Shown in pieces: positions 7,814 through 42,016 of a stretch of DNA of 64,000 nucleotides; the stretch's first letter is position 1, and each line of letters opens with the position of its first letter. The notes beneath the pieces were generated by a model, which searched no databases, was not told the DNA's origin, and saw only the letters and a list, made by a program, of their open reading frames with translations. The stretch covers positions 34,207 through 98,206 of the forward strand of contig CAILQW010000040.1 in NCBI GenBank assembly GCA_903836515.1, read 5' to 3'. The DNA is from Candidatus Omnitrophota bacterium (lineage in GTDB: Bacteria; Omnitrophota; Gorgyraeia; Zapsychrales; Fredricksoniimonadaceae). Made by a program: the position numbers and the translations under genes.

Positions 7814-7814
7814 A

Positions 7815-10104: not shown

Positions 10105-10143
10105 ATGTTCTCCATCTGTTTGAGCGACTATAAAATATAATTA

Positions 10144-10166: not shown

Positions 10167-10217
10167 CACTGCCATTTTTATTTGTCAAAAAATACACGCC
10201 ATGTACAAGAATGTAAC

Positions 10218-12944: not shown

Positions 12945-13036
12945 GGAAAACCTCTCCTGATTGAAGAAGGAACAAAAGGAAGGGTAATTTTAACTTGGAT
13001 TGAAATAAATAACAAGAAGAAAAAGGGAAGAGACGC

Positions 13037-13420
13037 CTACGCGCGAACCCCTTCTACCTTGGAAGAAAACTCGACCAGGCGGTGCAGCTTAAAAAGATTG
13101 ACCTTGTGAAATTCTATCCCGACATTCCATAACGAAGGGGCCTGGGAACTGGCCCAGCACACCCGCCCGTTGAGCGCCACAGGATCTTTACCGTCGGGAA
13201 GTTCCACCTCGATGGCAAGCATGTCATCCACAAAATAACGCTCGTGGGTATGAACCCGCACGCCGGAGCCTGAAAAATCCCTCAAAAAAACATCAACCCC
13301 ATAATCACGGGAAGAATCCTTGAACCGGGTGGGAAACTTTGCGGACAAACGTTCAAACAGGCGGCGTTCACCCGCCTCGTAACCTTGCGCATTTTCTTTT
13401 TTACTGTTTTCAAACCCCAT
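13037..13420 (-). CDS. PilZ-domain protein (c-di-GMP receptor).
   Basis: 127 aa. It has both PilZ signatures: RxxxR (RRLFER) and D/NxSxxG (DFSGSG). Confidence 0.75.
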   Translation of the reverse strand: MGFENSKKENAQGYEAGERRLFERLSAKFPTRFKDSSRDYGVDVFLRDFSGSGVRVHTHERYFVDDMLAIEVELPDGKDPVALNGRVCWASSQAPSLWNVGIEFHKVNLFKLHRLVEFSSKVEGVRA

Positions 13421-13461
13421 GGGAACGACCTTTGTGCCAACGTCTTTAAAAAATCGTATTT

Positions 13462-13815
13462 TCAGGCCGCCATTTCGCGATGCAAAAAACGTGTATTGAG
13501 CGTTGCATCTATATCTGACTGTGCTCCATCGATCACATCCTCAAAGATAAGCCCGATCCGGTATTGTTCTGTTTGCCCGATCTTGCGCACCCATTTAACC
13601 TGGCCTATAACCAGGACAGGATCTGTGTCAGGCTTAAGAACCAGTTCAATGGCCACTTTTTCATTCAATGGCACTTGATGGTTGGATATGAAACCAATAC
13701 CATCACGGCTGATATCCACTGTTTTAGTGCTGGTGAATATTGCGCCCTCTTTCCCATCTACCGGGACAGCGCAATCAAAACGTGTGGACCTTCTTTTATC
13801 AGCATTATTTTCCAT
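13462..13815 (-). CDS. PilZ-domain protein (c-di-GMP receptor), paralog of the adjacent gene.
   Basis: 117 aa. RRSTR (RxxxR) and DISRDG (DxSxxG) motifs. Confidence 0.75.
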   Translation of the reverse strand: MENNADKRRSTRFDCAVPVDGKEGAIFTSTKTVDISRDGIGFISNHQVPLNEKVAIELVLKPDTDPVLVIGQVKWVRKIGQTEQYRIGLIFEDVIDGAQSDIDATLNTRFLHREMAA

Positions 13816-15181: not shown

Positions 15182-18100
15182 TCACAAAGTGTCCACAGCC
15201 CCGTCCTTGGACTTGGCTGGCAGGCGGGAATCCTGGAAAGAAACGGCAGGCTTCGCACTGCCGCCCATGATCCACGGGAATCTTGGCTTTAACAGCAACG
15301 GGTCATCCAGCAACACAGGCGCCCAAGCGGGTGTCTCATTCGTTTTCCATATGCTCGGAGCGCTCGGCGGAATGATCGCCGTCTTGCTGTCAGCAGGTGA
15401 CGGCCTGTCCGTCACGATCTCTCCCGGGTCATCAATCAACCTTAGTTTGCTATCTGTCTCATTCTCGAAAGTGCTGCCATTGTCTTCCGCAGCACTGACA
15501 GGGCGGTGGATAAAGACGGGTTCCGGCGGCTTGGCATCGAGCGGATTGCCCGGCTTCACCAAATCTTCGGGAACCTTGTGATCCGGATCAAGCCACCAGT
15601 AACGCGCATTAAACACCGCCTTCTCCTGGGCCGTAGGCTCAACGTCCCTGATGCTCCGGCTCAACTTCAACAGCTCGGCCTGCAGCTGCTTCACCTTGAT
15701 CTCGCGACGCCTGTACTCGCCGATCAGTTTACGGGATTCCAGCTTGATGGCCAGCGCCTCGTCATCGGGCGCAACCATACGGCGTTCACGTTCGGCCACG
15801 GCCTCGCTCTGATAAACAACCTGGCCTTTTTCATTCAGGGCATATTCCCACTTGGCGAGGTATTCCACAAACTTCTCTCGGGTCAACTTCTTGTGGCGAT
15901 ACCGGCGCAGCATGGTCTTGACCGCCGGATTCAAATGCTTGATCACAAGATCCCCGGCATTCACCACGCCATACCCGAAGGACGAATGCAGCGCGGCCAT
16001 CACCTTGGCCGCACCAGCCTTGCCCAGCGCGATCGTCAACACTTCCTGGACCACCGGCAAGCGTTCAAGGATCGACGGCACCTCTTTGATAATATCGCGC
16101 ACCAGTTTCGTCACATCATCCTCACGCCCGGCCAGTTTGGCCAGGACCGTAATAGCCTTGTCCAGATCCGCCTTCAGCGCATTTTTGACAATGGACTTCC
16201 GTGCCCCCGCCACAATAGTACCCAACAGCATCAACGGATCATTGGTGTACTTCTTCAGATAAAACGCAAACCATACCGGATCATCCATATCAACCAGCTG
16301 AATCCCGCATTTAAGCTTCTTGGCTGAAGTGGCCGACGTGCGGAAGGAGGAACCAAACTGGTCCTGGTCTTCCGGCGATGAAATATCTTCTCCCCCGAGA
16401 ACCGCCGTAAGCATCGAATAGCGTTTCAGAAGGCCAATCTGTTCCTCCGTTGGATTCTCGCTATCAAACGCTGTTTTAATATCTCTCAGGCGTTTCAACT
16501 GAAGATTGGTCAACGTTAAAAGTTGCGCCAAGCTGGCCCTGACAACCGCCTGCGCCCGCCCGGCATCCAGGCGTCCCGTATCAATGCCCCTGTTCCTTAA
16601 AAGGACATCCGCAACCTCAAAAAAACGTTGGCGCGCCTGCGGATCAGAAGGCGTATTGCTACTCAAGAAATCTTCCAGCATCTGAGGTGTCGGGATTTGT
16701 GTGATGGTGGTAATCGTGCGTATGGCCGGCTGGACAAACGGCTGTAAAGAGTACCAGGACGGCGCAACGGGTAAAGTAGGCTTGGGCACAACCGGCAGAA
16801 TCAACGCTGGCGAGGCGGCAGGTTCAGCAGAAGCTGCCGCTTTCATCGCATTACCAAGAACCCCTTTCCTGAAGAAGTTCTCAACCCATTCAAACCAAGA
16901 ATCCGTCCCAGCCTCACCATGATCCACAGCCTGGGAATGATCTGCCGCCATAAAATGACAGATCCTTTCAACAGCTTGTTGACGGATATCCGGTTGCGTG
17001 ACCACGTCTGTCGCCGCCTTGACAAGATTCTCGCGTACCGACCAAGACATCTCCTTCAGCTCGCTTTCCTGTTCCAACGACATCCACTCCACAGCGAGTT
17101 GCTGCTTGTCTTCCCCACTAACGGCCCTCTCCATTATTTCTTTACTCTTGTGCTTTCTTTTCTGCGCCAAGGTATCTGCCAATCCTTCCTGTAATATCGC
17201 CAAATAATAATAAATATCTCCCGAAACAGTCTTCCTGGATTTCTCTATCCCATCGATAAGAACCTGTTGCTCACCAATGCCATCTCTTAATAATTTCTCT
17301 CCCCCTACCGACTCTCCTGAACGTTGCTTTTCAAGCGCATCAATAACTTTATCTGTAATATTCTTGCTTTCCTCACTCCCCTTCCCCGCCCCAAAATTAA
17401 ATTTTGTCAGCAGTTTTCTCCCTTTGGACAGAGGGAATAACTCGCCAGCCTTGGCATCAGCAGGCACAGCCCCGGCAAAAGCGGCCACAGCGGCCATTTG
17501 AACACGAATTCTTTCTTCATCTTCCAATGCCACAGGAAGGATTTTTTCTTTATAAGTTAACAAGCTGATCGTTCCTTCGGCAGAAATCTTGACGCTATTT
17601 TCCGGTACTTTATCTTTTTTCTTGTCTGTATAAATAAATGTTCCATCACTGTTTTCCTGGGGCCGCTGATCCGTTTCGGCAAAAATCAATCCGAGCGCTT
17701 TCAGCTTCAAAGGATCATCCCAATATTCCGGACGATCCATAGCATTCTTTGCAGCCGCGTGCACACGAGGATCCGTTAAATTTTGACCTGCCTGAATCAC
17801 AAGCGTCTGCCGTGCAAACTCAAGACACGCACGTTCAATCACCGGAACAAGTGCGGCCGTCAAAAAAGCATCCACAGGCGTTTTTTGTGTGAACTCATCC
17901 GGCAGAGGAACAAAAATATCTTCATCCGGCAAATGAATACGGGCCATAAAGGGACCCTGCTTGCCATCACCGACCACCGCAACCACTTGTTTCAGGTGCT
18001 CGGCGGATGCGCCCGCCACAGCAAGCTTGGCCAATGTATTAAGCACTTCTTGCAGACGTTCTCCCTGCCGGGTAAGCCACCGCGATTCGGCCTGCCCCTC

Positions 18101-21100
18101 GGTGATATTATCCATCGCTTTTTCAAGAACCTCGGCATTTGAATTCTTCACGACCTCTTGATACGCGATCATTGAAGCGCCACCCTTGGCTGCAAATAAC
18201 GGGAGGGTAACAACAACAGCCCCAGGTAAATACCTGGTGTTGTTGTCGGTCTGTACTTTCCACTGCGCCACAACTGCCTTAAGGGCTTCCTGCGCCTTGT
18301 AACTGTCCGCTTCAAAGTGCGCCACCGCCAGGGTGCCTTCTTTCCCTGACTGGCTGGCCGCCAGATAGCCAACGATATCCCCTTTGGCATCACGGACCAC
18401 AAGGTTCAACGCATCACTGCTGGACAAGAGATCTCTGATCTCGTCGGCCTTCTTCGTGTCCGGATTCTTCTTCTGATACCGGGCCACAAGATCCTTGATC
18501 AAATCCCCATCCTGATGACCCACCGGCGTCACCGTGTAACCCTTGGGAACATGCGGGGCAATATTCTTGACAAACTTGTCCTTGTTATCGACGAACTGCA
18601 TCGCAGGGGTTGTCCAGGTAGCCGTCGTCCCGTTCAGCGACGCACCGATCCTGGACTGTACCGCATTGAACCTGATCCAGTCAATGGACACCTCCTCGGC
18701 CTTCTTCTCATCCGGCAAATTGATCTTCCAGGTCCTGTCCGGTTGTAATGCAATGTTACCCACCTCACGCAATTCTTTCTCAATATCATCTTTCTTTTCT
18801 TCCGGATAATCTTTCTGACGCTGCGCTACAATCTTCGGATCAATATAGGCTGTTCTTGCAACCACCCTTTTCATCACATCGCCTTCTTTTTCAACGTCAA
18901 TCACCGCACAGCCCATGACCTTCATTAACCTGTCGGCACGTTCAATATACGCTGCATCCGTCAGCCCACTTAAATACTGATCCACCATCTGTGTGAGCTG
19001 TACCGTCTCGGCAGGATGTTTCTGGGATATCATCCCCAGAAGCGCCGAACGCCTCGACATCTTGGCAGACTGTTGAGCCGATGACTTCAATATTTTCAGC
19101 ACCTCCGCCTTACGTTCCGCCGCCGGAATATCGGCAGAAATATAAACTTCCTGGGTATTCTTTTCACCTTGCACCGTATAAGGGATCGTCACCACGACAT
19201 TCTTGGTATTTTCGGTCACAAAACTGGCAATGTCTTGCGTACTCTCAACCACCTTGATCGCCTGTCGGAAAGAGAATTCGGACGCCTGCGCAAAACGGGT
19301 CATGCGCGCAATGGTTTCCGTAATGGCCCGGGCATGATCCCTGGCCTCACGGATATCACCCGCCTCGTACGCTTCATGCAAAAACTGCATTTTACCCTTA
19401 AAAACAAACCCGGGGAGAACCTTGTTGGCCTTCTCCAAAAATTCAGTAAAATCCTTATGAAGAACATCTTTAAGAAATTCCGGGATTTCCGGCTTACCAT
19501 CGGGCTTGAATTTCATACCGAACATTTCCAGGTAATGCGCAAAGATCTCTTCATTGGAGAATTGCTCCCAATAAATATCTTCCCCCTGCCCCAACAGTCG
19601 TCCGATAAGGTCGTAACGCGTCAGGCGTGACTGGACAAACGCACCGCCTTGCCCTCGCCCCTTCATGACTTTGTTATATTCATGGAACAGTTCGTGCAGG
19701 AAAACACCCGCTTCATCGAACTTGACCAGCCCCTTGATCAGCGACAGCCCCAGCGCCGATCCCAATTTGAAGTGATCCTCTGTCGACTGGGCCGCTGATT
19801 TAGCCGCATCCAGCGCTGGATCAAGAAGCAGGTCTTTATTGAATTCCTTTTTTATAAATCCAACGATTTGCCCAAAACTGGCGGCTCTTTTTCCCAACGG
19901 CACGCCCTCCGGCGTTTCTGGTGTCTCATCCATCGATTCCAATTGAACCGCATAGCGCATGCCGGACTGATGCGCGATCTGGCCAAGCGTTGCATCCTTG
20001 TTGACCGGAGTACCTTTTTCAGTCATGGGGATAACACTCGCTTTAACGCGGAACAAATTTGCATATTGATTCACTGACGCAGCGTAATCCATAGCCTGTT
20101 GACGCGACGCCCCTTGAGTGGCCAAGAACGACTGGTAATCACGCGTTAATTTCTCCCCGACCCTGACCTGCTCGGCCATAGCGCTTTCAAACTCTTCGGC
20201 GGCCACAGAATAACCGTAGGCGTGCTTAACCAGTGTCATGTTCAGGCTCTCGGCCTTGTCCTTGATCGCTGCATTATCCTCAAAATTGTAATAGTAACCA
20301 TTTTTGGCCGCATCCCACTGCCGGACGAAAATACGGTCATCCCAGAACCAGCCGATACGGGACATGTTCCGGCTGACCATCTCGCCGGTGGTGTTATCGA
20401 TCGTGGCTCCCTTAAGATCGAGGCCAGCCCCAGCCTCGGCCCCTTCCGGCACGCCACCCATGATCTTGAACAGGCCCCGTTGGTACCCCTCTTCCAGTGA
20501 CGCGAACTTCATGCTCTCCTGGCCAAAAGCCCGCGCGACCTTGATCTTGCCATCCTCCCCTTTATAAGCAACCTTGACATTGGCAATATCGGTGGCCACG
20601 ACGCCGTCTTGGGCAATATACGAATGCCCATCCCGGATCACAACGCCTTTGCCGTGCACCACGAACATTTTCTTGCCACCTTCTTCATTATAATAACCGA
20701 CCTTGTCGCCCTTGGCGATCTCCCTGCCGTTAAGAAGAATCGGCGCCTCATTGGCCACCTCGGCATCGGCCATCACAAGCTCGGGGCCTTGCATCTTCAT
20801 TTTTAATTTCAGACGCAGTTCATCGCGACGCATATCCGCATGCTCGATCTTCTCGCTGACCAGTGCTTCAAATTCAAACAAATTATTGTTCTTCAAAGCG
20901 CTTTCTTTCATCTCTTCTTTAATAGAATTCTGGTACAAAACCCCTTCGAACAAAACCCCGCGAACATTCTGCTGGGCATCATAGAATGCCTGATACTTAT
21001 AACCTTGTTTTGTCCCGCTGACCGGCGTCACCAGTTCTAAGCTCTCTGCTTTGCCCAAGCCAAGTGCCGCTCCAATACGTACAAGATCCTCTTTTTCTAT

Positions 21101-33100: not shown

Positions 33101-36100
33101 ATCCGGCATCAACTGCCGTTGCGCCACGGTATTATTTAAAACAGGTTCGCCCTCCCCATTAGGAAGTAACGGCGAAGCGAATTGTTTCGGCAATGCCTGG
33201 ATTTCACGCGAATCCCCCATGGTGTAAAGCTCGCCGCGGGCATACTCCAGCTCTGGCGTTTTAATATAATTGCCTTTTAAAGAATCATTTAAATGCTGTT
33301 GCCATGAATTGGCCACTGTAATCGAAGACCCTGTGTTTTGGTCTTGCGCTGTTCCCGTATTCCACAACGGGGAACCCGACGAAGTGTCCCCTAGCACTGT
33401 GCCGTAGGCTAAAGGTGACCCAAGTCCCGTTTTACGATCTGCCGATGTGCCTAAATGAAAATCTTCGAAAGACGTTGTCTCGGGATTTGTAACCAATACA
33501 TTGGATGAACTGCGCGGAACCCAGGTCGTTGTGGTTACTTCTTTCCCACCCAAGACAATCCCTGTTTTTGCGTACGTCGCTTCACCTATAACCGGAGCCC
33601 TGCCGCGGCTAAAACCATAAAAAGATGTGTTCAGACCATCCAACAACAAAACATCCTTTTTACCCTCAGGAGTCATCGCGACAATCTGACCACGATCCAA
33701 CGTTTTTCCCGTAAAATCCTTGGTATACGATAGATTGAAATCCCCCACATCTTCCGCCAGACCCACAATCCGCGCCAGGCCGGAAACGCCTCCGGTGCGG
33801 CCGCCACTGACTTGAAACTGCGTGGCATGACCAGCGGCATCCCGTTGCCAAGAGCCCTGGTATTGAACATTCGTAACGGGATTCTGCGCGGTAAATGCCG
33901 TACCGCCGCCAACATTGTCGTCGGTGAGCGTCACAAGATAATATGGATTGCCGGAATTCAGCGAGCGGAACCTGTTGCGTGTTATGGCCTTGGTATCAAG
34001 AACGCCTTGACCATCCTGATTCATCAAGCCGCTCACATTATCAACCTGAACGGGGCGATTAGCCTCAGGCAAAGCCTCCAGTTGCGCAAAAGCCCGGTAG
34101 GTAAAACCAAGATTCGTGTAAATCTTGCGTGCAAGGCTGTCGCTCTGAACCGAAGCCAGGTAACCCGACGCCACATTTTCAAACCCGCGCTGCGTATTGC
34201 TCACAATGCCTTTCTGCGCCATCGAAGCAATGTAACTGCTGCTGATCATGCCGGGATCGATCGAATCAAAAGTTGTCGCCAGCAATTGCGCATATAACAC
34301 ATCCCCGGCCAGCGCCCCGGGCTGCAGGGGATCCTTAGCATGGGTGACAGCCATTTTCGCATTGTCTACCTGCAAGGTATCCCATTGTTTCTTCATTGAT
34401 AACGCCCATTCCGGCGTAAACCCGGTGATTTGATCCAACGTTGAGATCGCCAAACTCGCCGCCGCCATGCGTTCAGGCGCTTCCCGCCTGGTATCGGCAA
34501 AAGTACTCATGGCACTGGTTCCCCAGAAATCCGCCTGAAACTTCTGATTACTATCCCAAAATTCCTGTGTAGTCGCATTCATAAACCGGCTCAAAGGGCT
34601 GAGGCTGATACCGACATTAGGATCGTAGGCATCACTGGTATTGGCTATCCCATAAGCACTCGAACGCCCGGTGTTGGTATCGTTAAAATTAAAACTGGGT
34701 TGTGCAGGATCTTGCCCTGAAAAATTGGAACTATACCCCACAAAGCCCCGCGCCTTGGCGCTTTCCTCAATATCCTTGCCAGGGCTGAACAACGCATCCG
34801 CACCTGCCAAAAGGGCCCCCGAAAGAATCGCTGATGCTTCAAACACAATCATGTTCCGCTGGGCCTGCGCCGCCTGCTCATTATGGGACAAATTCTTCTG
34901 ATCAGATGTCACGGCCAACGTAATCAAGGTTGTCACCGCGGCCTGGCCAACCGTTTTAAAGAAAGGAGCAGCTTCATTTTCTTGTTTTTGCACCAGCGCT
35001 CCCAGCGTGCGCGCATCCTCGGAACTTAAATTTATTAATAAATTTTTCTGTTCTGGCGTTGCGTTTTCACCAGCCTTCAAGGCAGCAGCCGCCTTGAGGT
35101 TCGCCTGCATAAATTTTTCCTCAGCCTGTGAAAACGGAGACACCCCCACCCAATTCCCCACCATGCCCCCCATCTGCTTGCCAAACAGCCCAAGGACCTG
35201 CGATCTGGCATTGGCGTCTTTATCATTTTCTTCTCTGAACCCGTTGGCCGCGTAACGCACCACCGCAGAAATGGCATCGCCGATCACCGCTTTACGAAAA
35301 CCCGCGCTTGTAAATGCATCCTTGGGAGATAACGCTTTACCCTCGGGATTCAATATGGTCTTGGGATTCATAAACTCGGAAAAAGACATGGCCGGCCTTT
35401 TCTCCGCAGAAGATGAACTATCCTTTATGGAAGAACGACTATTCGTTGTAGAAGGCGAACTCAGCGCCGCGACAATCTGGCTCGCCGCCACATTCGTTCC
35501 ATAATCAATGACAGATGACGCAACCGCGTAACAAAAGCTCTTGGCAATAGCCTGGTTATCACCCCACACATGATCCAGCCACTTGGAAACCTCATACATG
35601 GCCAACCCTCTGACCGCGCCGACGATCGCGCCGGTCGCCGCGGCTTTGGCTATTTCACCCACGCTTAACGCCACGGTCTGCGTGGCGGCGTTCTCAAGTG
35701 CCGTTTGCAGTCCTGCACTAGTTAGATCTTCACCCAGGGCTGTAGCAGTACTCTTAATCTCATCCATTGCTGGATTCTGTCCCGCCTTGGCGGCTCCTTG
35801 GGCATAATTGTACCCGTACGTCAATGCCGCATTTAACGCCGTGGTTAAAATAAAAGCTGTCTTGGCACTGCAATTCCCGGTAACGTAACACGCAGACCCA
35901 ACAGCTTGGGAAAACTGCGATGCTCCAAGGGCAAACGCGGCATCAAAACAGTTTCCGCCCAGCAAGAGCGTCGCTCCTATTTGAATACCAACCTGAAGCG
36001 CAATCTGCCCCAATGTCACCAGGCCCGGCAAATCACTGGATCTGTTACGCCAGTGGTCACCCCAAACAAAGGCCTGCATGGCCTCAGGCACACGCGTGAA

Positions 36101-36994
36101 GGCTGCCGTGTCAAAGGCCTCAAGCCCCTGGGCCAGCACAAACCCCGTGGCCCTCTGTTCAAACTGCGCGCGCGGCATGGCCGCGGGCGTACCGATATCC
36201 ATGACACGCACCATGCCGCCATCCACCGCGATGACGGTTACAAAATGCTCCCCGGCCAGACTGGCGATAAAAGGCGGGGGGAGTTTCAGCACATCTGAAG
36301 GCTTCAATTTGGCAGCCGCATACTTCAAATCAAACGCCTTAGCCACCCTGGAAAGAGCTGCCAGCGATGTTTTAAGTGTTTTGTCTCCTGGTTTGACAAT
36401 GCCGCTGATAATGTCCACGGTCACTGTCATCAGAGAAACTTCTTCTGGTGTCTTGTGAATACCCTGGGCCGCAAGAATATCATTTAACGCATAAACACCG
36501 CAATTAAGGTGATGAAGGGATGGCTTTGCAAGCCAGGCAACAGTTTGACGGATCTGTGCCGGCGTGAAATTGACATGAGAATCAACGGCAAGGACATATT
36601 CCCGGTGCTTGTTTCCGGATAAAAGATTCTTGCCATCATCGATCTTGAGGTCAATGCGGCTTGAAGGCTGGCCCGCCACCTGCGTCAGAAGATGCTCCAT
36701 ACTGCTGGACACAAGCATGGCGGTCTGTTGCGCTGGCTGCAGCTGCACCTGGACTACAGGCGTGCCATAAAGGATCGCCGGATTATAATTGAATGCCCAA
36801 CTGACCTGATCGGGAATAAAAATGCAGATAACAACAAATGCGATGGCACGCGTCCATGCATGAAATCGTGTGGGTATTGACGGTTGACGGAGAGATATGG
36901 CTTCAATAGGGCGGGGCAAAGAAACAGAGCTTCTCCTATTATATATAAGAAAAGCAAAGAACTCCTTTAACTGTTCTTTGAACTTCATGATCAT
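15182..36994 (-). CDS. Giant 7270-aa multidomain protein (21.8-kb single ORF) of unknown function.
   Basis: A continuous reading frame of 7270 codons with no stop; chance ORFs in ~55% GC DNA rarely exceed a few hundred codons. GAGG lies 6 nt upstream of the ATG at 36994. Domain order (N to C): TM anchor, C39-like peptidase, Gly/Ala-rich glycine-zipper-like segments, beta-rich region, long helical/coiled-coil region, P-loop ATPase (SF2/SecA-like), HEXXH motif, C-terminal tail. Sub-features below carry the individual motif evidence. Confidence 0.9.
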   Translation of the reverse strand: MIMKFKEQLKEFFAFLIYNRRSSVSLPRPIEAISLRQPSIPTRFHAWTRAIAFVVICIFIPDQVSWAFNYNPAILYGTPVVQVQLQPAQQTAMLVSSSMEHLLTQVAGQPSSRIDLKIDDGKNLLSGNKHREYVLAVDSHVNFTPAQIRQTVAWLAKPSLHHLNCGVYALNDILAAQGIHKTPEEVSLMTVTVDIISGIVKPGDKTLKTSLAALSRVAKAFDLKYAAAKLKPSDVLKLPPPFIASLAGEHFVTVIAVDGGMVRVMDIGTPAAMPRAQFEQRATGFVLAQGLEAFDTAAFTRVPEAMQAFVWGDHWRNRSSDLPGLVTLGQIALQVGIQIGATLLLGGNCFDAAFALGASQFSQAVGSACYVTGNCSAKTAFILTTALNAALTYGYNYAQGAAKAGQNPAMDEIKSTATALGEDLTSAGLQTALENAATQTVALSVGEIAKAAATGAIVGAVRGLAMYEVSKWLDHVWGDNQAIAKSFCYAVASSVIDYGTNVAASQIVAALSSPSTTNSRSSIKDSSSSAEKRPAMSFSEFMNPKTILNPEGKALSPKDAFTSAGFRKAVIGDAISAVVRYAANGFREENDKDANARSQVLGLFGKQMGGMVGNWVGVSPFSQAEEKFMQANLKAAAALKAGENATPEQKNLLINLSSEDARTLGALVQKQENEAAPFFKTVGQAAVTTLITLAVTSDQKNLSHNEQAAQAQRNMIVFEASAILSGALLAGADALFSPGKDIEESAKARGFVGYSSNFSGQDPAQPSFNFNDTNTGRSSAYGIANTSDAYDPNVGISLSPLSRFMNATTQEFWDSNQKFQADFWGTSAMSTFADTRREAPERMAAASLAISTLDQITGFTPEWALSMKKQWDTLQVDNAKMAVTHAKDPLQPGALAGDVLYAQLLATTFDSIDPGMISSSYIASMAQKGIVSNTQRGFENVASGYLASVQSDSLARKIYTNLGFTYRAFAQLEALPEANRPVQVDNVSGLMNQDGQGVLDTKAITRNRFRSLNSGNPYYLVTLTDDNVGGGTAFTAQNPVTNVQYQGSWQRDAAGHATQFQVSGGRTGGVSGLARIVGLAEDVGDFNLSYTKDFTGKTLDRGQIVAMTPEGKKDVLLLDGLNTSFYGFSRGRAPVIGEATYAKTGIVLGGKEVTTTTWVPRSSSNVLVTNPETTSFEDFHLGTSADRKTGLGSPLAYGTVLGDTSSGSPLWNTGTAQDQNTGSSITVANSWQQHLNDSLKGNYIKTPELEYARGELYTMGDSREIQALPKQFASPLLPNGEGEPVLNNTVAQRQLMPDSFGALYGYAQLNPGVLGLDTDGRWSLNGQTAGAGASYVNLSYAKNGNPLVEAFAAKDLVGYNNDGTQKFQEKGQLAFLAESNIQATKGVFEYLDTAGRVGDERFARNLILDTTNGKPEVYTRPFKVADASHGNIQSGQPVMGYLDGAKIEEIYQDEHNGFKGEGVARGDVSFGAVNSVGTDISKSYFNENSGWTMSPLVEGRGNGTIEGVKGEKWDFDGKPVELSTKELNVAFKVRQKDGVYLPGLELLFTAKDKSEDITFYSESLLGAKSDSKKSGTMGSIKDPQSTLKLYDQKSYGTEGDQNNPVRKVFLYKKSGHGSTEFNGQVAFTADDPFSGQMTPLLTSVHYIYSGEFNEKTQQFNKTPYHLDPTTNLVFSPKLYRGFGAKDIHLHITDTGSLYVGDRTWYEQNLTTGNKLTHASIFRTGQYWGGIQRLAAELSQGYNGDPGKDGEIGKEQAVKIMLSPAAVKRGLYMDVNSRNGLDKYISVSGKIRQANGAWINMASFTWIGKGLDLKLRTENKPKESLTWDPRDNSPLNKKDGAGSGTATEPNIWAFSPQGIRTYTSQELDRLGMNQQIILATTGFREGVLTEGKKFDAAISHYIYGNTFLEGEKGYAYQTKHIKGLYNEGGVDPEGQLNTYQQALNNSYFEFTKSANDPFMHFNPNAASVVVMDGLSTTNLVNSRQTSHIQTPGGGVVTLDSFQKFGSDMPGAFMGVINMPNGSRSFFGLDHMIVNNINNKQSGSTLMNIGGGASISGAFPAQQTPFTGIWMHYNLNMTGWSRVNKDGSVVFGGDLPQGLTGLVVTGNIQTAFQRKLYNAQVNGWGMNSLGGASMMIDGQIVVPANDKITGSGKGEVLARGNVASMKEDVMLVNATKMPLVYQGVGQFWSLLQPLTLTESGTGSKRVTTHYFDGNVTYDVTAGKDGEDKYNIVKVNGKQWKQEDSLTAEPIAGRYLVKKDGWELKIIDLYNTKNVRSVRNFEEVTLNSNDFTGKEFDATSRTKISKKFDFGDVLSLFSNPVTNFSMYLNPYVLGEKIVNKLIFNEEVSTEVILKKKDTTGKIVQAGSVEFGKYDPNTGRPQVVQVRQLDIKTLRPKEATDFQGIKEGIAGFIVPFEKVLKIGGIFKRVEGVSGLSRNRVFSADNTRAIPSNLENISTKIFLNKNGTIDFGASLKNTVPYDQVFKPIEYTTLAMNLQNRMSARTQAVWSLDYSTGTMQSVANGSTIKMPDGYYYQVNNKDLNLKKEGELNTPFTTAVLGQTTGVGRWLKDNQMSAIAGVVDPGRWTTFDVVSTPFLFLAATKAVSMGTRSISGAGAMTKWLVPVGRAIAADFAAGTVVSVGQDLLTGNPVSYDRAVANGLSWGRTGGQFQLAFGATAMGATALGMERWGAALAKTAEGTGAKAFGARLMLNPAKISGVQMGIINTFNGYLESTMPGEKAWTWRRGIVDFVVGDVIGSVYGGLKGLKINGGEFKGMNKAYHEFVLNPENVVAHRISNAIAYTGGSLMGGQFRDYYGQSSQHVDNNGLQKTILRVTAGALGGSMFATSGKWLNFIVAENKVELTPVLNSTEKMTVKLGEKIKNFETVKSLGNEWKVLREEGALLRPGPLQVAGVRPSSLAQWWSGAPRAAYVRHALVGGSIGGGFSMFDDVMTGRDINWEKAGGYALFGAANALAMKGWRDVGMLKARAVLGISEERVSLQAFARNPDLIWKTGLISGADFAWTMPAFNGATAGIEYLLNKAKYSLGIVGGKPDKENWSEARKAVFGPTGKEGLWNASIASMASGFKMGMTLGPMLGVTSRPFGISGGGPLEMVLSHPWAHTIPTTASKLAVVKAGLTSLGVDRDTADAIAFYSLAFFPGANPGAARDAQHKNIEKEIAWREGRDQSDPKIFDLQKQQMGLLQQEHREVKQQMASFSDAKESPVYAKLEAKSSVLDARINEAGAHMAEPIIRERIDKIDNLIDKFQQRFDSVSNDPVKAPKIGEILSKLEARKGVLTALLPENITRLNASIDTAQKLVKNMEAISSKKDAPVNKELTDLIAERAQLLMDLINFKAVVRIEAPNSDVSKKSPQVVSEQPTVNGLLDGLQKISKDPVDLAKELSAKQARLVEVNESLVLTRQAQIARAAAKTPDQKTLAIKDYQAAKADADLKRVDAERILALHELNAKVEKAKQAGIDVEKISAPGNKDVSRQAGPEYEEVVRAQRNVERLEQEKGDAVARAEHYQGRALAERKIQADSAQIVQLQAKRNTLESKNKKTDVELKAINDLDVEITGKEKVLRWFTQLVQESVSHDLAGGASEGKNNITREMARDWKEIQNTKVLRDLAQQYVKSKGVGAEESTMIEGVIKELTPLLDSAFDQVRPQVGQEHAAQAPPKTQDTGSANESSSRMRISSETSDFSPTETQSFLKELSSSITQISQRRAELAEDMMDLVVNKYGNAAKVVRLKAPERQAKAELDAAKNDLGEIRQSVPVKTSLEEKVTTAREVEGKKNSKSQNTKDSVSSEENTDKDSTKNIKKAVSPEDAILYTLQEILKNESYVKMQEQMKASPKAKAKARELLGERAYGEFVSSLEAKAKQEEAQLNRISDLQAKVDVATANLDNTRWSGLVENYLKKEYSQLSKEDRATLHFGADEILMNTILQQFPKQVAEWKALKEEREKEKDANASLIDQRIHEAEKALMVEVGKQLTRDQIAATEWFVRSGVKQLENLWAQKDLSEQKKTENSAKTEDSSKTLIDDMVALVKDPGQQEVVRSLFMAAQMERNGSAMHQNDIKLEEKKLDNEGARKDVSKGRIELLKQNIEAIKTDINKYKDPTGLLSLYSGILERLVGQEYDFQREPDTADKHRDSAVEHLERAKQESSYAVRLEAMRELADQPLDGYMAKFQQATTYRDQRAALQGMVTEGIREQAAVDIFRIRQELQNSINSVLSSPLDNEERAAKRIEKISERLQSLYQRLESLDPGSDVVIMEKEDCQKLLALARDAVQIIQNPAGIGSTRWDGIKDQAKKFGYDEKPNEQKEMREKAREILTSLHKTLGQDQAGLFAARLTDRTRQESMLSGVDHDAKVQRKELNEKDASSLAILIDNAEAVDKERGKTPAPQLQGRHQKLYDYTDTILRGLKEKENWDRRPDQIKYVFHQLNYIFYLIDRIEEKKANGVVWGIDGVLLSLAMAGGKTKMEPYIINLITPYAREHGVEVMNIKPNVTLAEAAGNREGFFRYKVPGDLTLPENKGKVPVLAFQELQKISLDYQNSRDPDKVNPLKDYLGVVDEIHQILLSVPMITSDATDSFAVARKMTTEKLMERAREQITGRMLGQTILEVANAFAGKKSDAMALVIDAFIKEERSGDIKFRTSEEKKFIWMRDGEVIDVKNVESGDKLFEVKDGKIVLMDREVSSEEMSKASGIQDIFKEQFRNKMKNDAKAFAELADGRWDIFMDAAATALKNELWKDKFRAAFKADGTFDLVTIQHILSGTEAYDRVFTDKTGLNSFMRMIVGLHEAKTNKTVSLPEFIRLTDRNNHVQVTAMETLGLMGSWLGVTGTAEPVHDLAKAYGIYMHEFGTAITLEHVNWTHELVKGAPGEDIATQVRAWLRAPRDPNRPASTEVLYINQGLTEDRKAAIDHQDIQALKNDKNVVVLHYDANNFNQGVEALKRKVGKDIKGNYYDVNRVEMTDAFGRKVEGGLDGKKIIFLSAGQEGASFEFDGHLTHYDFNVRALYGALQSMLRGDSIKSEYTEIKDNANRTSSDYKLFVNIGAYRDPRLIDPDRDRLRSVQGTAEEFKVLVQIMKRLQQEESQQSFVQSVSVDKGLNRDAMGQHLQRMYEDWRADMVREFAQENGIARIWDGVNGAGGQALRMSQDGKNVMHLYDFTLQNGQGIKDEFGYIKLAPGQIGVPTGGSGETMRVYTPTTDMSQQTIMDRLNRGEAIEQPTQQWLVMDYRVNPDTASDKPPMVRTWVPAEQVVNGEDVEVKVTTDMMVVVADGNKVKVPQVTRYFKNDLYKGMDQFKRIEKEDLVRIGAALGLGKAESLELVTPVSGTKQGYKYQAFYDAQQNVRGVLFEGVLYQNSIKEEMKESALKNNNLFEFEALVSEKIEHADMRRDELRLKLKMKMQGPELVMADAEVANEAPILLNGREIAKGDKVGYYNEEGGKKMFVVHGKGVVIRDGHSYIAQDGVVATDIANVKVAYKGEDGKIKVARAFGQESMKFASLEEGYQRGLFKIMGGVPEGAEAGAGLDLKGATIDNTTGEMVSRNMSRIGWFWDDRIFVRQWDAAKNGYYYNFEDNAAIKDKAESLNMTLVKHAYGYSVAAEEFESAMAEQVRVGEKLTRDYQSFLATQGASRQQAMDYAASVNQYANLFRVKASVIPMTEKGTPVNKDATLGQIAHQSGMRYAVQLESMDETPETPEGVPLGKRAASFGQIVGFIKKEFNKDLLLDPALDAAKSAAQSTEDHFKLGSALGLSLIKGLVKFDEAGVFLHELFHEYNKVMKGRGQGGAFVQSRLTRYDLIGRLLGQGEDIYWEQFSNEEIFAHYLEMFGMKFKPDGKPEIPEFLKDVLHKDFTEFLEKANKVLPGFVFKGKMQFLHEAYEAGDIREARDHARAITETIARMTRFAQASEFSFRQAIKVVESTQDIASFVTENTKNVVVTIPYTVQGEKNTQEVYISADIPAAERKAEVLKILKSSAQQSAKMSRRSALLGMISQKHPAETVQLTQMVDQYLSGLTDAAYIERADRLMKVMGCAVIDVEKEGDVMKRVVARTAYIDPKIVAQRQKDYPEEKKDDIEKELREVGNIALQPDRTWKINLPDEKKAEEVSIDWIRFNAVQSRIGASLNGTTATWTTPAMQFVDNKDKFVKNIAPHVPKGYTVTPVGHQDGDLIKDLVARYQKKNPDTKKADEIRDLLSSSDALNLVVRDAKGDIVGYLAASQSGKEGTLAVAHFEADSYKAQEALKAVVAQWKVQTDNNTRYLPGAVVVTLPLFAAKGGASMIAYQEVVKNSNAEVLEKAMDNITEGQAESRWLTRQGERLQEVLNTLAKLAVAGASAEHLKQVVAVVGDGKQGPFMARIHLPDEDIFVPLPDEFTQKTPVDAFLTAALVPVIERACLEFARQTLVIQAGQNLTDPRVHAAAKNAMDRPEYWDDPLKLKALGLIFAETDQRPQENSDGTFIYTDKKKDKVPENSVKISAEGTISLLTYKEKILPVALEDEERIRVQMAAVAAFAGAVPADAKAGELFPLSKGRKLLTKFNFGAGKGSEESKNITDKVIDALEKQRSGESVGGEKLLRDGIGEQQVLIDGIEKSRKTVSGDIYYYLAILQEGLADTLAQKRKHKSKEIMERAVSGEDKQQLAVEWMSLEQESELKEMSWSVRENLVKAATDVVTQPDIRQQAVERICHFMAADHSQAVDHGEAGTDSWFEWVENFFRKGVLGNAMKAAASAEPAASPALILPVVPKPTLPVAPSWYSLQPFVQPAIRTITTITQIPTPQMLEDFLSSNTPSDPQARQRFFEVADVLLRNRGIDTGRLDAGRAQAVVRASLAQLLTLTNLQLKRLRDIKTAFDSENPTEEQIGLLKRYSMLTAVLGGEDISSPEDQDQFGSSFRTSATSAKKLKCGIQLVDMDDPVWFAFYLKKYTNDPLMLLGTIVAGARKSIVKNALKADLDKAITVLAKLAGREDDVTKLVRDIIKEVPSILERLPVVQEVLTIALGKAGAAKVMAALHSSFGYGVVNAGDLVIKHLNPAVKTMLRRYRHKKLTREKFVEYLAKWEYALNEKGQVVYQSEAVAERERRMVAPDDEALAIKLESRKLIGEYRRREIKVKQLQAELLKLSRSIRDVEPTAQEKAVFNARYWWLDPDHKVPEDLVKPGNPLDAKPPEPVFIHRPVSAAEDNGSTFENETDSKLRLIDDPGEIVTDRPSPADSKTAIIPPSAPSIWKTNETPAWAPVLLDDPLLLKPRFPWIMGGSAKPAVSFQDSRLPAKSKDGAVDTL
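19682..19696 (-). other. Isolated HEXXH zincin-like motif (FLHELFHEY) in the giant protein.
   Basis: GVFLHELFHEYN is seen directly (encoded at ~19676-19700). No additional metalloprotease landmarks were recognised, so this may be fortuitous. Confidence 0.2.
22600..23700 (-). other. P-loop NTPase core resembling SF2 helicase / SecA motor domain (Walker A and DExH Walker B) inside the giant protein.
   Basis: Walker A LAMAGGKTKM is encoded at 23582-23605. Walker B/motif II GVVDEIHQILLSVPMITSD is encoded at 23296-23320, ~98 aa downstream, the normal motif I-II spacing. The local pattern (EPYIINLITPYA after the P-loop; VDExxxILxxxPxIxS) resembles SecA (GEGKTLVATLPAYLNAL / VDEVDSILIDEARTPLIIS). 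DEIH is a classical DExH helicase variant. A further ~300-aa region downstream is compatible with a second RecA-like domain. Confidence 0.45.
23700..27490 (-). other. ~1200-aa charged helical / coiled-coil region of the giant protein.
   Basis: It starts at KEIAWREGRDQSDPKIFDLQKQQMGLLQQEHREVKQQ... (encoded at ~27425-27490). It continues with K/E/Q/L/A-rich low-proline sequence and recurrent heptad-like hydrophobic spacing, ending just before the ATPase core. Confidence 0.5.
27500..29200 (-). other. Gly/Ala-rich amphipathic glycine-zipper-like segments within the giant protein (possible membrane-interacting region).
   Basis: Stretches such as GAGAMTKWLVPVGRAIAADFAAGTVVSVGQ, GGQFQLAFGATAMGATALGMERWGAALAKTAEGTGAKAFGARLM and GGSLMGGQF...GALGGSMFATSG show repeated small-xxx-small (GxxxG/AxxxA) spacing. 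This is seen directly in the translation. Confidence 0.35.
36139..36607 (-). other. C39-like papain-fold cysteine peptidase domain at the N-terminus of the giant protein (residues ~130-285).
   Basis: HLNCGVYALNDIL (Cys165) ... TSLAALSRVAKAFDLKYAAAKL ... LPPPFIASLAGEHFVTVIAVDGGMVRVMDIGTPAAMPRAQFEQRATGFVLA (His250, Asp266). This follows the C39 family pattern: a CGxxAL nucleophile region, the HFVV(L) His block and a downstream Asp with correct spacing. It is preceded by a TM helix (AIAFVVICIFI, residues ~50-60). Confidence 0.55.
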
Positions 36995-37415
36995 GTTGGC
37001 CTCGATTTATGAAACTATTTCAAGAACCCCATCAAAGTTCAATGACAGTAAAAAGTATAGCATGGAAGCTTCGTCAAGCAAATTTTTAAAAATTTTTCTA
37101 CATTAATAAATCTTTTGTTTTAAACAACTTAAGTCTCTTTTTAAATCTGTTCTTGAATAAATGAATAATTCATTTCTTAAATCAATTTTTTTGATTATAA
37201 ATTGATAAAATTGTTCATTTTTATAACCCAGATGCAGTAGCACGATCTTCTCGACGCGTCCCTGCGAACAAAACGGTGCGGCTACAAATGTGTTTGGACA
37301 TTAACAAGACCTGTTTCCATCATTTAATTCGGATTTAATTGTCCAAACTGAAAGAAAAAGCCCACGCACGGAAATCTGGGCATGGGCCATGTGATACTTT
37401 TGATTATATAAGACG
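36995..37415. promoter_or_regulatory. AT-rich 420-bp upstream region of the giant gene (likely promoter/leader).
   Basis: The composition drops sharply to AT-rich sequence (ttttaaaaatttttctacattaataaatcttttgttttaaac...) between the upstream gene stop (37416) and the giant-gene start (36994). Confidence 0.35.
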
Positions 37416-40787: not shown

Positions 40788-40796
40788 GGGATCCCC

Positions 40797-41654: not shown

Positions 41655-41669
41655 AGGATCATTTCTGGC

Positions 41670-42005: not shown

Positions 42006-42016
42006 AGCGGCTCCCA

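Follow-up and report, generated by a model that had tools for sequence, protein, structure and literature searches.

An intact gene for a 7,270-residue membrane-anchored protein beside a Tad pilus locus of Candidatus Omnitrophota

Described giants of the Omnitrophota and the present locus

The Omnitrophota are widespread, ultra-small and probably predatory or parasitic bacteria, and giant genes make up a few percent of their small genomes. 'Big ORFs' over 20 kb were described in this phylum by Seymour et al., 2023 (PMC10066038), who also cite that a giant-ORF product is more abundant in attached cells of V. archaeovorus. The same class was described by West-Roberts et al., 2023 (bioRxiv 10.1101/2023.11.21.568195) as Omnitrophota 'Archaeovorin' and 'Dockerin-type' giants, for which self-export, C39-processing and polyprotein ideas were proposed, and proteins of at least 10 kAA were catalogued by Nielsen & Lui, 2026 (bioRxiv 10.64898/2026.06.07.730766). 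The latter two studies also published the upstream and downstream gene neighbourhood, and relatives of up to 147,155 aa with many predicted transmembrane helices are found in the literature.

We analysed a 64,000-nt stretch of DNA (the window) in which one ORF encodes a protein of 7,270 aa (Table 1). This gene very likely does belong to the giant-gene class of the Omnitrophota, and was shown to be a single-copy, compact, 7,270-aa representative of it. It shares with the published giants the phylum, the single enormous ORF, an N-terminal C39 peptidase (the published criterion being C39 or S8) that adjoins the signal or anchor, and probably an ATPase that diverges strongly from SecA and in which its scaffold and wing domains were not recognised. 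The surroundings are shared as well, with a T2SS/Tad-like cluster upstream that holds rcpC, gspD/E/F-type genes, Rotamase_2 and small class III-leader genes, and with pilZ, solute-binding-protein-dependent transporters and glycoside hydrolases downstream. The gene class, the head domain, the divergent SecA domain and both neighbourhoods are known already, and the gene adds no category to them.

However, the protein is much smaller than the 46 curated giants (>30,000 aa) and the members of the 2026 catalogue (at least 10,000 aa). With 21,813 nt the gene passes the threshold of 20 kb used by Seymour et al., and its product falls short of the limits set by Nielsen & Lui (10,000 aa) and by West-Roberts et al. 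(30,000 aa). Numerous transmembrane helices are a mark of the published giants; in the window protein one clear helix and several weakly hydrophobic Gly-rich candidates were found. Its ATPase, beta and HExxH engine is a rare sequence family. Of the carbohydrate-active, adhesion and repeat domains by which the published subtypes are defined, none turned up in it. The Archaeovorin subtype was rejected, as Pfam and NCBIfam searches with halves and with tiles of 500-730 aa gave no glycosyltransferase, methyltransferase, glycosyl hydrolase, HEAT/TPR or NUDIX domain, and the Dockerin-type subtype was rejected as well, with no dockerin or TSP3 repeats in the Pfam searches of tiles and no internal repeats.

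GTDB species genomes gave 54 loci with relatives of the N-terminal head, almost all under the title Candidatus Omnitrophota or Omnitrophica, in agreement with the phylum proposed in the original prediction. The closest of them, L009, shows an identity of 51% for the head and of 74-76% for TadB and TadC. At 50 of the 54 loci the ORF with the head continues past the end of the fetched DNA, and it exceeds 3,700 aa wherever 10 kb was available.

The gene had been placed directly downstream of a co-oriented Tad pilus locus, and Pfam matches together with pilin leaders bear this out. The locus encodes a PPIase (Rotamase_2), RcpC/CpaB, a secretin with TonB_C, a fusion of a TadZ-like domain with CpaF, DUF192, Flp/TadE-type pilins, TadB, TadC and conserved unknowns of 596, 1020 and 157 aa. 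About 35-39 related loci show the same genes in this order ahead of the ORF with the head, and in them TadB, TadC and five conserved unknown genes are upstream and co-oriented. Four loci (L014, L015, L025 and L062) carry a head-bearing giant ORF with Tad genes not detectable in the 10 kb available upstream. Homologues of the 748-aa ORF that precedes the giant gene were found only in L035, at the same position, and in L006, downstream of the giant gene. On the other side lie two PilZ genes, GH94, a sugar-binding protein, two ABC permeases and a GH2-like/TPR protein. The neighbours identified with Pfam were RcpC, secretin, T2SSE, T2SSF, Rotamase_2, PilZ, SBP, BPD_transp_1, GH94 and GH2. The giant gene is shown to be the terminal cargo gene of a conserved supra-operon that runs from the Tad cluster over the giant gene to PilZ and then to sugar import and glycoside hydrolases. 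This matches the published neighbourhood, and with it the suggestion that giant genes together with tad pili are a hallmark of the phylum.

Table 1. Features of the giant gene, its product and its neighbourhood, with positions in the window.
Feature	Residues (aa)	Position (nt)	Strand	Basis or remark
Downstream co-oriented module		4617..13815	(-)	Pfam; gene calls in other assemblies
Giant ORF, 7270 codons + stop	1-7270	15182..36994	(-)	ATG start; 21,813 nt
Helical tail, Pro-rich end	6291-7270	15185..18124	(-)	
GNAT-like acetyltransferase (weak lead)	~6130-6290	18125..18607	(-)	Homology to L063 stretch
Helical domain with H5767-E-L-F-H and conserved IYxEQFSxEE..AH motif	5690-5900	19295..19927	(-)	
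Conserved beta-rich domain	5081-5640	20075..21754	(-)	No match to known fold
SF2/SecA-like two-RecA ATPase (putative)	4401-5080	21755..23794	(-)	Nucleotide-binding motifs
Charged helical linker, low Gly/Pro	3171-4400	23795..27484	(-)	Composition, partial heptad periodicity
Conserved Gly-rich, weakly hydrophobic block	2561-3170	27485..29314	(-)	Conserved motifs
Variable Cys-free Gly/Asn/Thr-rich region	740-2560	29315..34777	(-)	Presumed ectodomain
Uncharged Gly/Ala/Ser/Thr-rich segments	322-500	35495..36031	(-)	After W-R-x-R-S-x-D-L-P-G-L motif
Papain-like C39 peptidase domain, Cys165/His250/Asp266	~130-300	36095..36607	(-)	Pfam PF03412
Signal anchor, single strongly hydrophobic helix	46-68	36791..36859	(-)	Kyte-Doolittle 1.93
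AT-rich 5' intergenic region		36995..37415	(-)	GC 0.33; GAGG 6 nt before ATG
748-aa ORF between TadC and giant gene		37416..39662	(-)	No Pfam match
Upstream co-oriented Tad-type locus		39882..57698	(-)	Pfam; pilin leaders

Integrity of the giant reading frame

The giant ORF is a real, intact gene for a 7,270-residue membrane-anchored protein. Its terminal stop is the only stop in the translation and, with a stop probability of 0.052 per codon at the base composition of the window, 7,270 stop-free codons have a chance probability of ~1e-169. The gene was called at its full length of 7270 aa in two independent assemblies, on a 123.7-kb contig (ENA+NCBI ERZ1426688) and on an 80.4-kb scaffold (ENA ERZ18624148), so that the proposed single 21.8-kb frame far beyond chance holds. 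Shorter calls of 6928, 5917 and 5593 aa in three assemblies and of 3616 aa in a fourth look as if they were cut at contig ends. Seven loci from other assemblies were 100% identical in DNA over nt 1-9579 of the ORF or within nt 13180-21813, and two more short loci matched its first ~750 nt only, one of them with a single mismatch. Among the independent homologues, P0004 (7335 aa) is collinear with the window protein over aa 17-513, 2930-3132 and 4222-5961, P0003 over aa 1930-6506 and L009 over aa 1-3272.

An assembly artefact that joins several genes, or a pseudogene with an open but functionless frame, would be suggested by the shift of GC3 along the ORF from 0.40 to 0.70 and by homologues that for most of the length are limited to a few metagenomic sequences. 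The chance probability of the frame, the identical sequence and full-length calls in several assemblies and the collinear homologues, which bridge all junctions up to aa ~6506, argue against it, as do catalytic and nucleotide-binding residues that are invariant among relatives of 30-50% identity. We therefore regard such an artefact as extremely unlikely, and the concern about misassembly raised earlier is largely removed.

The frame starts behind the ribosome-binding site and the AT-rich region of its own that had been described, the latter being 421 bp long with a GC content of 0.328 against ~0.50 for the window. An extended -10-like element, TGcTATACT, was read ~70 nt upstream; this element was absent from the list of a consensus promoter scan, and an Rfam search of the intergenic region found no riboswitch. 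Self-BLASTP gave no internal protein repeats and TRF two tandem DNA repeats in the ORF, both trivial, and the description of the protein as a mosaic stands in the sense that it is non-repetitive.

Predicted architecture of the protein

The conserved parts predicted in the protein are, from the N terminus on, the anchor, the C39 peptidase, Gly-rich blocks, a variable stretch of ~1,800 aa, a second Gly-rich block, a spacer, the ATPase, the beta domain, the HExxH domain and the tail. Apart from C39, Pfam and PDB searches gave no match anywhere in the giant protein. The N-terminal membrane anchor of the original prediction was recovered as one strong helix, with positive charge on its N-terminal side (K4, K6, K10, R20, R21, R28, R36, R43 and R49 precede the helix or lie at its start) and D62 after it. 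The anchor overlaps an invariant juxtamembrane motif, F59-x-P-[DE]-Q-x-S-W-x-x-N-Y-N-P72, of which F59, P61, Q63 and Y70 were present in all 56 sequences of the head alignment. Hydrophobicity at transmembrane level was reached by this helix alone, and the Gly-rich blocks are weak candidates, with mean Kyte-Doolittle values of 1.0-1.45.

The C39-like cysteine peptidase was also confirmed in the head. On a 520-aa tile PF03412 scored 26.8 bits, above the Pfam gathering threshold of 22, and only 21.4 bits when the query was 4000 aa; all four head sequences matched the family, the best with 2.3e-10. Based on the alignment of Omnitrophota relatives, in which C165 (55/55), H250 (53/53) and D266 (53/53) were invariant, the papain-like peptidase is predicted to be catalytically intact. 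The best PDB profile match of the region was the double-glycine protease 6mpz (E 0.29). C39 domains usually have a Gln six residues before the catalytic Cys, whereas in the giant heads this Gln is not conserved and an invariant Asn164 precedes the Cys. The domain shares the papain-like family, by Pfam score, with the bacteriocin-processing, double-glycine C39 peptidase of the PCAT/ABC exporters (ComA, LagD, PCAT1), as well as the Cys/His/Asp residues and the N-terminal position in a membrane-associated, export-related protein. In contrast to those exporters, it has no fused ABC transmembrane and nucleotide-binding domains; Pfam found no ABC exporter domain in the giant protein, and the nearby ABC genes are sugar-import permeases only. 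Behind the peptidase and a W-R-x-R-S-x-D-L-P-G-L motif conserved in the head alignment follow uncharged runs of 29, 26 and 24 aa with Kyte-Doolittle values up to 1.45. They agree with the glycine-zipper-like amphipathic segments anticipated here in being rich in Gly and Ala and uncharged, and may be membrane helices.

The region between aa 740 and 2560 gave no match in Pfam and PDB searches and could be aligned only with L009 (40%) and, over a short distance, with P0003. Of all segments of the protein this one is the least conserved, and it lies within aa 501-4000, which are without any Cys; for these two reasons it is read as the exposed part, presumably an ectodomain. It may be rich in beta structure, as had been proposed. 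The following block carries the motifs NPDLIWKTGL, LWNASI..GFKMG and IAFYSLAFFPGANP, and is conserved in L009, P0003, L011, L025, P0004 and L063; since its mean Kyte-Doolittle value is just ~1.0, it is only a candidate for membrane insertion. The helical linker varies in length among relatives, with 939 residues in P0003 against 678 in the window protein. It had been taken for ~1200 aa of coiled coil, of which the charged, Gly- and Pro-poor composition stood, but strong heptad periodicity was confined to sub-stretches.

In the ATPase region the SecA-type motifs I-III were found in order: GGKT (4466-4469, with K4468), DEIH (4562-4565, from D4562) followed by VPMITS, then GLHEAK and GVTGTA (4829-4834, with T4831). 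The motifs are kept in 6-7 relatives and align collinearly with those of E. coli SecA. The two share the two-RecA SF2 fold (predicted for the giant protein), motif I (M-x-x-G-x-GKT), motif II (DE(V/I)(D/H), then (T/V)P(L/M)I(I/T)S), GLH(Q/E)A followed by motif III (G(M/V/Y)TGTA), and a large insertion between motifs II and III, which in SecA is the preprotein-binding domain and here spans ~250 aa, whose structure was predicted with a pLDDT of just 30-65. However, the giant protein has no recognised helical scaffold, wing or C-terminal linker domains, its motifs V and VI are degenerate (SxGxxGxS; HYDF..R..Q...R.D), and its ATPase is embedded within a 7,270-aa chain. Similarity to SecA was not significant by BLASTP (E 0.27) or hhalign (probability 24.6%), Pfam, PDB profile and phmmer searches returned no SecA match, and PF07517 matched neither the window protein nor its relatives. 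Predicted fold and motifs favour a divergent SecA_DEAD identity, and the domain, with all nucleotide-binding motifs of an SF2 ATPase, is a putative ATPase.

The helical domain behind the beta-rich domain may be a minimal zincin. The HEXXH motif reported for the protein is present, but its spacing is not kept, with HExxH in two and HExxxH in two of the four members that cover it. A GNAT-like domain further downstream is a weak lead: the homologous stretch of L063 matched Pfam Acetyltransf_1 with 23.8 bits (cut-off 20.7), whereas the window segment itself had no Pfam match. Beyond aa ~6506 homology was not detectable. The engine order is common to P0003, P0004, P0006, P0011 and L063, and the combination of ATPase, beta domain and HExxH is rare, with 11 clusters in 1.84 billion representatives and one JGI metagenome locus.

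Possible modes of action

The best overall explanation, which we consider moderately probable, is that of a membrane-anchored, self-exporting surface protein for contact with host or prey, with a mechanism that we infer as follows. The N-terminal helix would fix the protein to the cytoplasmic membrane, its N terminus inside as the basic residues before the helix and D62 after it suggest, and the C39 domain and the variable region would lie outside the cytoplasm as the surface-exposed, fast-evolving part that contacts host or prey. One Gly-rich block would re-cross the membrane, leaving the spacer and the ATPase engine (aa ~4200-6500) in the cytoplasm, where ATP is at hand. The SecA-like motor may power export or insertion of its own ectodomain or of partner substrates, and C39 may trim or release the exported material. 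The Tad machinery would provide envelope passage and attachment, the PilZ proteins control by c-di-GMP, and the downstream GH and ABC genes uptake of the released sugars. This specific topology and self-export mechanism is tentative, possible rather than probable. Against it, a single segment has normal transmembrane hydrophobicity, the Gly-rich blocks having Kyte-Doolittle values of 1.0-1.45, and if the chain does not re-cross the membrane the ATPase lies outside the cytoplasm and the model fails. That no domains of the published subtypes were found also counts against this explanation.

The LapA/LapG/LapD system of Pseudomonas and the MARTX toxins are what we take to be analogies, with no support at the level of sequence. 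They too are very large envelope proteins; the Lap system likewise has a cysteine protease at or near an N-terminal retention element and c-di-GMP-binding proteins encoded alongside, and MARTX would correspond in its Gly-rich membrane-active segments and autoprocessing cysteine protease. In contrast to both, the window has no repeats, RTX nonapeptides or T1SS genes, the protease is of another family and inside the giant chain, and PilZ proteins replace LapD. Sequence similarity to Lap-type adhesins or MARTX was not found, and RTX, MARTX and Ig-like repeats were absent by self-BLASTP, TRF and Pfam.

A MARTX- or large-clostridial-toxin-like effector polyprotein, exported as a whole chain, would explain why the only convincing transmembrane helix lies far upstream of a domain that requires ATP. 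The Gly-rich blocks would then form a conduit in the membrane of prey or host, the SF2 ATPase, HExxH domain and possible GNAT would act in the target cell, which can supply ATP, and C39 would autoprocess the chain. Low Cys content is typical of proteins exported unfolded, and Cys is almost absent outside the head; the conserved Gly-rich amphipathic blocks, a cysteine protease combined with several unrelated enzyme-like modules, the tight linkage to a secretin-containing machine and the predatory or parasitic members of the phylum point the same way. We nevertheless consider it unlikely, as there are no RTX/MARTX-type repeats or matches to toxin families, the peptidase at the extreme N terminus beside the anchor (conserved 56/56) suggests retention in the producer's membrane, the ATPase motifs are nearer to SecA, a protein-export motor, than to known effectors, and the far larger relatives (up to 147,155 aa) with many predicted transmembrane helices fit a resident membrane protein better. 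Somewhat less likely again is a fused operon, translated once and cut by its own C39 into surface adhesin, membrane component, ATPase and metalloenzyme, which would then act together with the Tad machinery as a complex. Enzymes of the C39 family process their substrates by cleavage after Gly-Gly, and here the triad is invariant and the modules are unrelated and joined by variable linkers. In L002, L013, L031 and L058 a frame change breaks the gene, which goes on in a second, overlapping ORF, and the L002 split was seen in three assemblies; such breaks suggest that the modules can work when made separately. The polyprotein idea was also raised by West-Roberts et al., 2023. However, conserved cleavage sites were not identified, C39 is predicted to be extracytoplasmic but the preferred topology would put most junctions in the cytoplasm, the frame changes may stem from misassembly or mark pseudogenes, and a single frame is kept in 50 of 54 relatives. 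Such cleavage would be compatible with the self-exporting surface protein as well as with the toxin.

The position directly after TadB/TadC, strictly conserved and co-oriented across the phylum, together with the long helical spacer and an ATPase of its own beside the CpaF fused to a TadZ-like domain, could also point to a scaffold or ruler that stays in the inner membrane as part of the Tad machine (platform, length determinant or motor accessory) instead of an exported surface factor. This appears very unlikely, as the four loci mentioned above have the giant ORF without detectable Tad genes, Tad systems elsewhere to our knowledge function without such a giant protein, and a body so variable in length and sequence fits a diversifying interaction surface better.

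One may speculate, although we regard this as improbable, that the present gene forms with P0004, P0003 and L063 a 7-kaa subfamily that is the stripped-down functional core of all Omnitrophota giants, a self-contained export machine alongside the Tad pilus. It would combine a C39 head outside, a Gly-rich membrane conduit, a cytoplasmic SecA-derived motor and two accessory domains of new fold, and would be a previously unrecognised autonomous protein-translocation system, more than a large adhesin. The gene is among the shortest intact giant members, has been assembled identically many times, and keeps only the class-wide elements (anchor and C39 head, Gly-rich blocks, SecA-like ATPase, conserved C-terminal engine), and it therefore lends itself to experimental work. 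The modules for ATPase, C39 and HExxH are of a size that allows each to be expressed, and the invariant residues C165, H250, D266, K4468, D4562/E4563 and H5767/E5768 are targets for mutation.

Integrity of the giant gene

The giant gene is intact. Translation recovered the ORF of 7,270 codons where the original prediction had placed it, with an ATG start and no internal stop codons. Given the base composition of the window, a random frame would meet a stop once per ~19 codons, and the probability of 7,270 open codons is ~1e-169. The proposed ribosome-binding site (GAGG, 6 nt 5' of the ATG) and AT-rich upstream region (a 421-bp spacer with a GC content of 0.33, compared to ~0.50 for the window) were both found as described. 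As PilZ genes lie nearby, a c-di-GMP riboswitch was looked for in this leader, and no Rfam riboswitch matched at E-values up to 1. Internal repeats or a recent tandem expansion were sought in the protein and none were detected; the DNA of the gene contains only two trivial tandem repeats.

It had been considered that the ORF could be an assembly chimera. The neighbouring genes were found in a public protein collection, and their look-up led to the same locus in many assemblies. The giant gene was called at 7,270 aa on both a 123.7-kb contig (ERZ1426688) and an 80.4-kb scaffold (ERZ18624148), and the shorter calls of 6,928, 5,917 and 5,593 aa in three assemblies and 3,616 aa in a fourth look cut by contig ends. 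Over ORF nt 1-9579 or inside 13180-21813, seven loci have DNA that is 100% identical to that of the window; two more loci are short and span no more than the first ~750 nt, and one of these carries a single mismatch. These repeated assemblies largely answer the concern. By exact 39-mers the source contig was found neither among GTDB genomes nor in JGI metagenomes. Since the other assemblies are 100% identical, the single-mismatch locus aside, population dN/dS is uninformative.

Domain organisation of the giant protein and its relatives

The anchor (aa 1-72) has a basic N terminus and a single strongly hydrophobic helix at aa 46-68 (Kyte-Doolittle 1.93), and by the positive-inside rule these charges suggest that the N terminus faces the cytoplasm. 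The juxtamembrane motif F59-x-P-[DE]-Q-x-S-W-x-x-N-Y-N-P72 overlaps this helix and surpasses every other element of the family in conservation, the protease active site included, with F59, P61, Q63 and Y70 present in 56 of 56 Omnitrophota sequences. Prepilin-like N-terminal processing was rejected, as by eye the protein is without the G/A-Q-x-x-x-E-Y leader borne by the neighbouring pilin genes. The predicted C39-like peptidase at aa ~130-300 scored 26.8 bits with Pfam in a 520-aa tile (cut-off 22), and all four head sequences match Peptidase_C39, and P0004, a homologous protein, scores 27.3 bits. Within a 4,000-aa query the score was 21.4 bits, under the cut-off, showing that true domain matches can be hidden by very long queries. 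The protease triad (C165, H250 and D266) is invariant among the aligned relatives. The best PDB profile match of the head, which was not significant, was the double-glycine protease domain of a PCAT transporter. At aa 305-500, uncharged runs rich in Gly and Ala come after a conserved W-R-x-R-S-x-D-L-P-G-L motif.

In the word index, the sole homologues of the head were the proteins P0001 and P0002, both with Pfam C39. An alignment of the first 520 residues with these two proteins and the N terminus of P0004 was scanned against one genome per GTDB species and gave 54 loci. The titles of nearly all of them read Candidatus Omnitrophota or Omnitrophica; 'uncultured Planctomycetales', an automatic name, occurs for some and 'Elusimicrobia' for one. 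The best relative was locus L009 (CAIOPG010000004.1), with a 51% identical head, and the 74-76% identity of TadB and TadC to those of L009 is the nearest thing to a phylogenetic placement. The head-bearing ORF leaves the fetched DNA in 50 of the 54 loci and exceeds 3,700 aa wherever 10 kb was fetched, and the head is therefore the signature N terminus of Omnitrophota giant genes. In the four exceptions (L002, L013, L031 and L058) a frame change is followed by an overlapping ORF in another frame, and that of L002 recurs in three assemblies (L002/L003/L004). Assembly error, pseudogenisation and programmed frameshifting are possible explanations. Reading L002 as a head encoded by a separate gene was rejected, as a shift of frame into an overlapping ORF that carries the sequence on is not a clean two-gene layout.

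Several relatives keep the same order, from the head through the Gly-rich block, the spacer, the ATPase and the beta domain to HExxH. P0004 is full length (7,335 aa, JGI 3300045502) with two T2SSF genes directly upstream, and P0003 has at least 5,340 aa in the Omnitrophota MAG ELA167, in which the head is found on a different contig (L010). Locus L063 has no stop across all 22,475 nt fetched, and the fragments P0005-P0013 hold parts of the same domain order. Because the remaining Omnitrophota relatives have only aa ~40-400 in common with it, the giant protein represents a compact branch, and a rare one, within a large and highly diverse class.

The middle region evolves fast. The Gly/Asn/Thr-rich and Cys-free stretch at aa ~740-2560 had no matches in any library, and L009 (40%) and a small part of P0003 were all that could be aligned to it. 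An antiparallel beta-helix tubule has been reported by West-Roberts (2023), and this stretch would be a candidate for such a fold. The Gly-rich block that follows (aa 2561-3170) is kept in six relatives, with a family-averaged hydropathy of only ~1.0. The coiled coil of ~1200 aa that had been proposed (aa 3171-4400) was supported in part, as the region carries many charges and little Gly or Pro, and strong heptad periodicity is restricted to sub-stretches; its length differs among relatives. The domains at aa 5081-5640 and 5690-5900 are conserved. The counterpart of aa ~6130-6290 in L063 is above the Pfam GNAT threshold and the giant protein itself, in the tile search, under it. The tail (aa 6291-7270) has a Pro-rich end and no detectable homology. 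Ten tiles that took in most of the chain apart from the head and ATPase region were searched with Pfam and gave no matches beyond C39, and neither NCBIfam with the giant protein nor phmmer against PDB with both halves gave any match. Cysteine is nearly excluded from the chain: aa 501-4000 are devoid of it, aa 1-500 have six residues (among them the catalytic C165 and the conserved C369) and the remainder has five.

The ATPase region (aa 4401-5080) was not recognised by sequence methods. Word-indexed homologue searches gave no matches for either the region itself or a profile of its family, the index probably being swamped by low-complexity words, as an exhaustive search of 1.84 billion representatives did detect relatives. 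These were only 11, with no canonical SecA among them, and one matches Pfam ResIII at 1.5e-5. The SF2/SecA-like core of the original prediction holds by fold and motifs, whereas comparison of the family profile with PDB gave no SecA match; the profile of the engine, the portion at aa ~4200-6500, had no PDB matches at all. An AF2 model from nine sequences (pLDDT 66.7) resembles SF2 ATPases, and Foldseek placed it near MDA5 (E 6e-6) and Mycobacterium tuberculosis SecA (E 3e-4, best TM-score). The nucleotide-binding motifs are preserved in every relative and follow the same order as in E. coli SecA: LAMAGGKT in the family and MRTGEGKT in SecA for motif I, VDEIHQILLSVPMITS and VDEVDSILIDEARTPLIIS for motif II, GLHEAK and GLHQAVEAK before motif III, and GVTGTAE and GMTGTAD for motif III, which in SecA is TGTA, not SAT. 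It is this pattern that specifically points to SecA. 'Divergent secA DEAD helicase domains' without scaffold and wing domains have been described in Omnitrophota giants (West-Roberts 2023, bioRxiv 10.1101/2023.11.21.568195). A viral origin of the engine was rejected, as no relative was found in IMG/VR.

Gene neighbourhood and class membership

Features around the giant gene, in the order of its transcription; from gyrB to LacI a CvpA-like ORF is the sole plus-strand gene, all others being on the minus strand
Feature	Window position	Strand	Description
gyrB, gyrA		-	Upstream
tRNA gene	59141-59214	-	Between gyrA and mdh; sole Rfam match in the window
mdh		-	Upstream
Rotamase_2 isomerase, RcpC/CpaB		-	Upstream
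Secretin	54151-55884	-	Pfam Secretin and T2SS-T3SS_pil_N, C-terminal TonB_C
Pilus ATPase fusion	51964-54141	-	725 aa; N-terminal ParA/MinD-type (AAA_31, CbiA, ParA; TadZ-like) and T2SSE/CpaF
DUF192 gene		-	Upstream
613-aa ORF	49684-51525	-	GC down to 0.39; helix-turn-helix-looking N terminus
Seven small ORFs	47132-49379	-	Flp/TadE-type class III leader (G/A)-Q-x-x-x-E-Y and hydrophobic helix
596-aa ORF	45339-47129	-	Conserved unknown; same leader at the N terminus
Conserved unknowns, 1020 and 157 aa		-	Upstream, followed by TadB, TadC
TadB, TadC		-	Upstream
748-aa ORF	37416-39662	-	Between TadC and the giant gene; no Pfam matches
Giant gene	15182-36994	-	7,270 aa
Juxtamembrane motif	36779-36820	-	Within the giant gene
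CvpA (colicin V production)-like membrane protein	14271-15098	+	Converges on the giant-gene stop codon; also called in other assemblies
Two PilZ genes, GH94, sugar-binding protein, two ABC permeases, GH2-like/TPR protein		-	Downstream
TPR and coiled-coil proteins, LacI		-	Further downstream

As predicted, a Tad-type cluster lies upstream on the same strand. TadB, TadC and the conserved unknowns precede the head-bearing ORF in the same order and orientation in ~35-39 related loci, and the linkage of the giant gene to genes for Tad-type machinery, for PilZ proteins and for sugar uptake is conserved. The set of pilin-like genes is unusually large, and no prepilin peptidase gene was recognised within the 64-kb window. 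The combination of secretin and TonB_C is unusual; TonB-domain genes also occur in giant-gene flanks (Nielsen & Lui 2026, bioRxiv 10.64898/2026.06.07.730766). Homologues of the 748-aa ORF were found at the same position in locus L035 and directly downstream of the giant gene in locus L006 (32191-35829, 45% identity) and are absent from the remaining related loci. A homologue of the 613-aa ORF was seen only in L009, and this gene could represent either a mobile remnant or a regulator that has been inserted.

This context corresponds item for item to that published for Omnitrophota giant genes, including Rotamase_2 and class III signal peptides upstream (West-Roberts 2023), and the same pattern was confirmed by Nielsen & Lui (2026). 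Tad complexes and ORFs over 20 kb are recurrent Omnitrophota traits (Seymour 2023, PMC10066038). The giant gene has the phylum, the C39 head and the upstream and downstream clusters of the class, and its size is borderline (>20 kb but <10,000 aa). The giant protein has none of the domains of the two named subtypes, GT, HEAT and NUDIX for Archaeovorin and dockerin and TSP3 for Dockerin-type. It therefore belongs to the already known class and fits neither named subtype. While unsurprising to a specialist, it is of practical use as a short, repeatedly assembled and almost bare version of the class that retains the shared core.

Possible roles of the chain

In the mechanism that we prefer, which is in line with West-Roberts (2023), the head and variable region would lie outside the cytoplasmic membrane as a contact surface, and the Gly-rich block would bring the chain back into the cytoplasm. 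There the SecA-like motor could export either the ectodomain of the giant protein itself or partner substrates, the C39 domain could process or release what is exported, and c-di-GMP may regulate the system via the PilZ proteins. Topology is the weak point of this mechanism, as Kyte-Doolittle hydropathy gave only one convincing transmembrane helix in the giant protein. Without a second passage through the membrane, a domain that depends on ATP would lie outside the cell, and a MARTX-like delivered effector chain would then be the best alternative. A more novel reading, in which the shared core works by itself as an autonomous export machine made of one chain, seems quite unlikely to us. The giant protein may also be a polyprotein that C39 cuts into separate parts, which is compatible with both membrane export and a delivered effector; the frame-split relatives lend this reading slight support.
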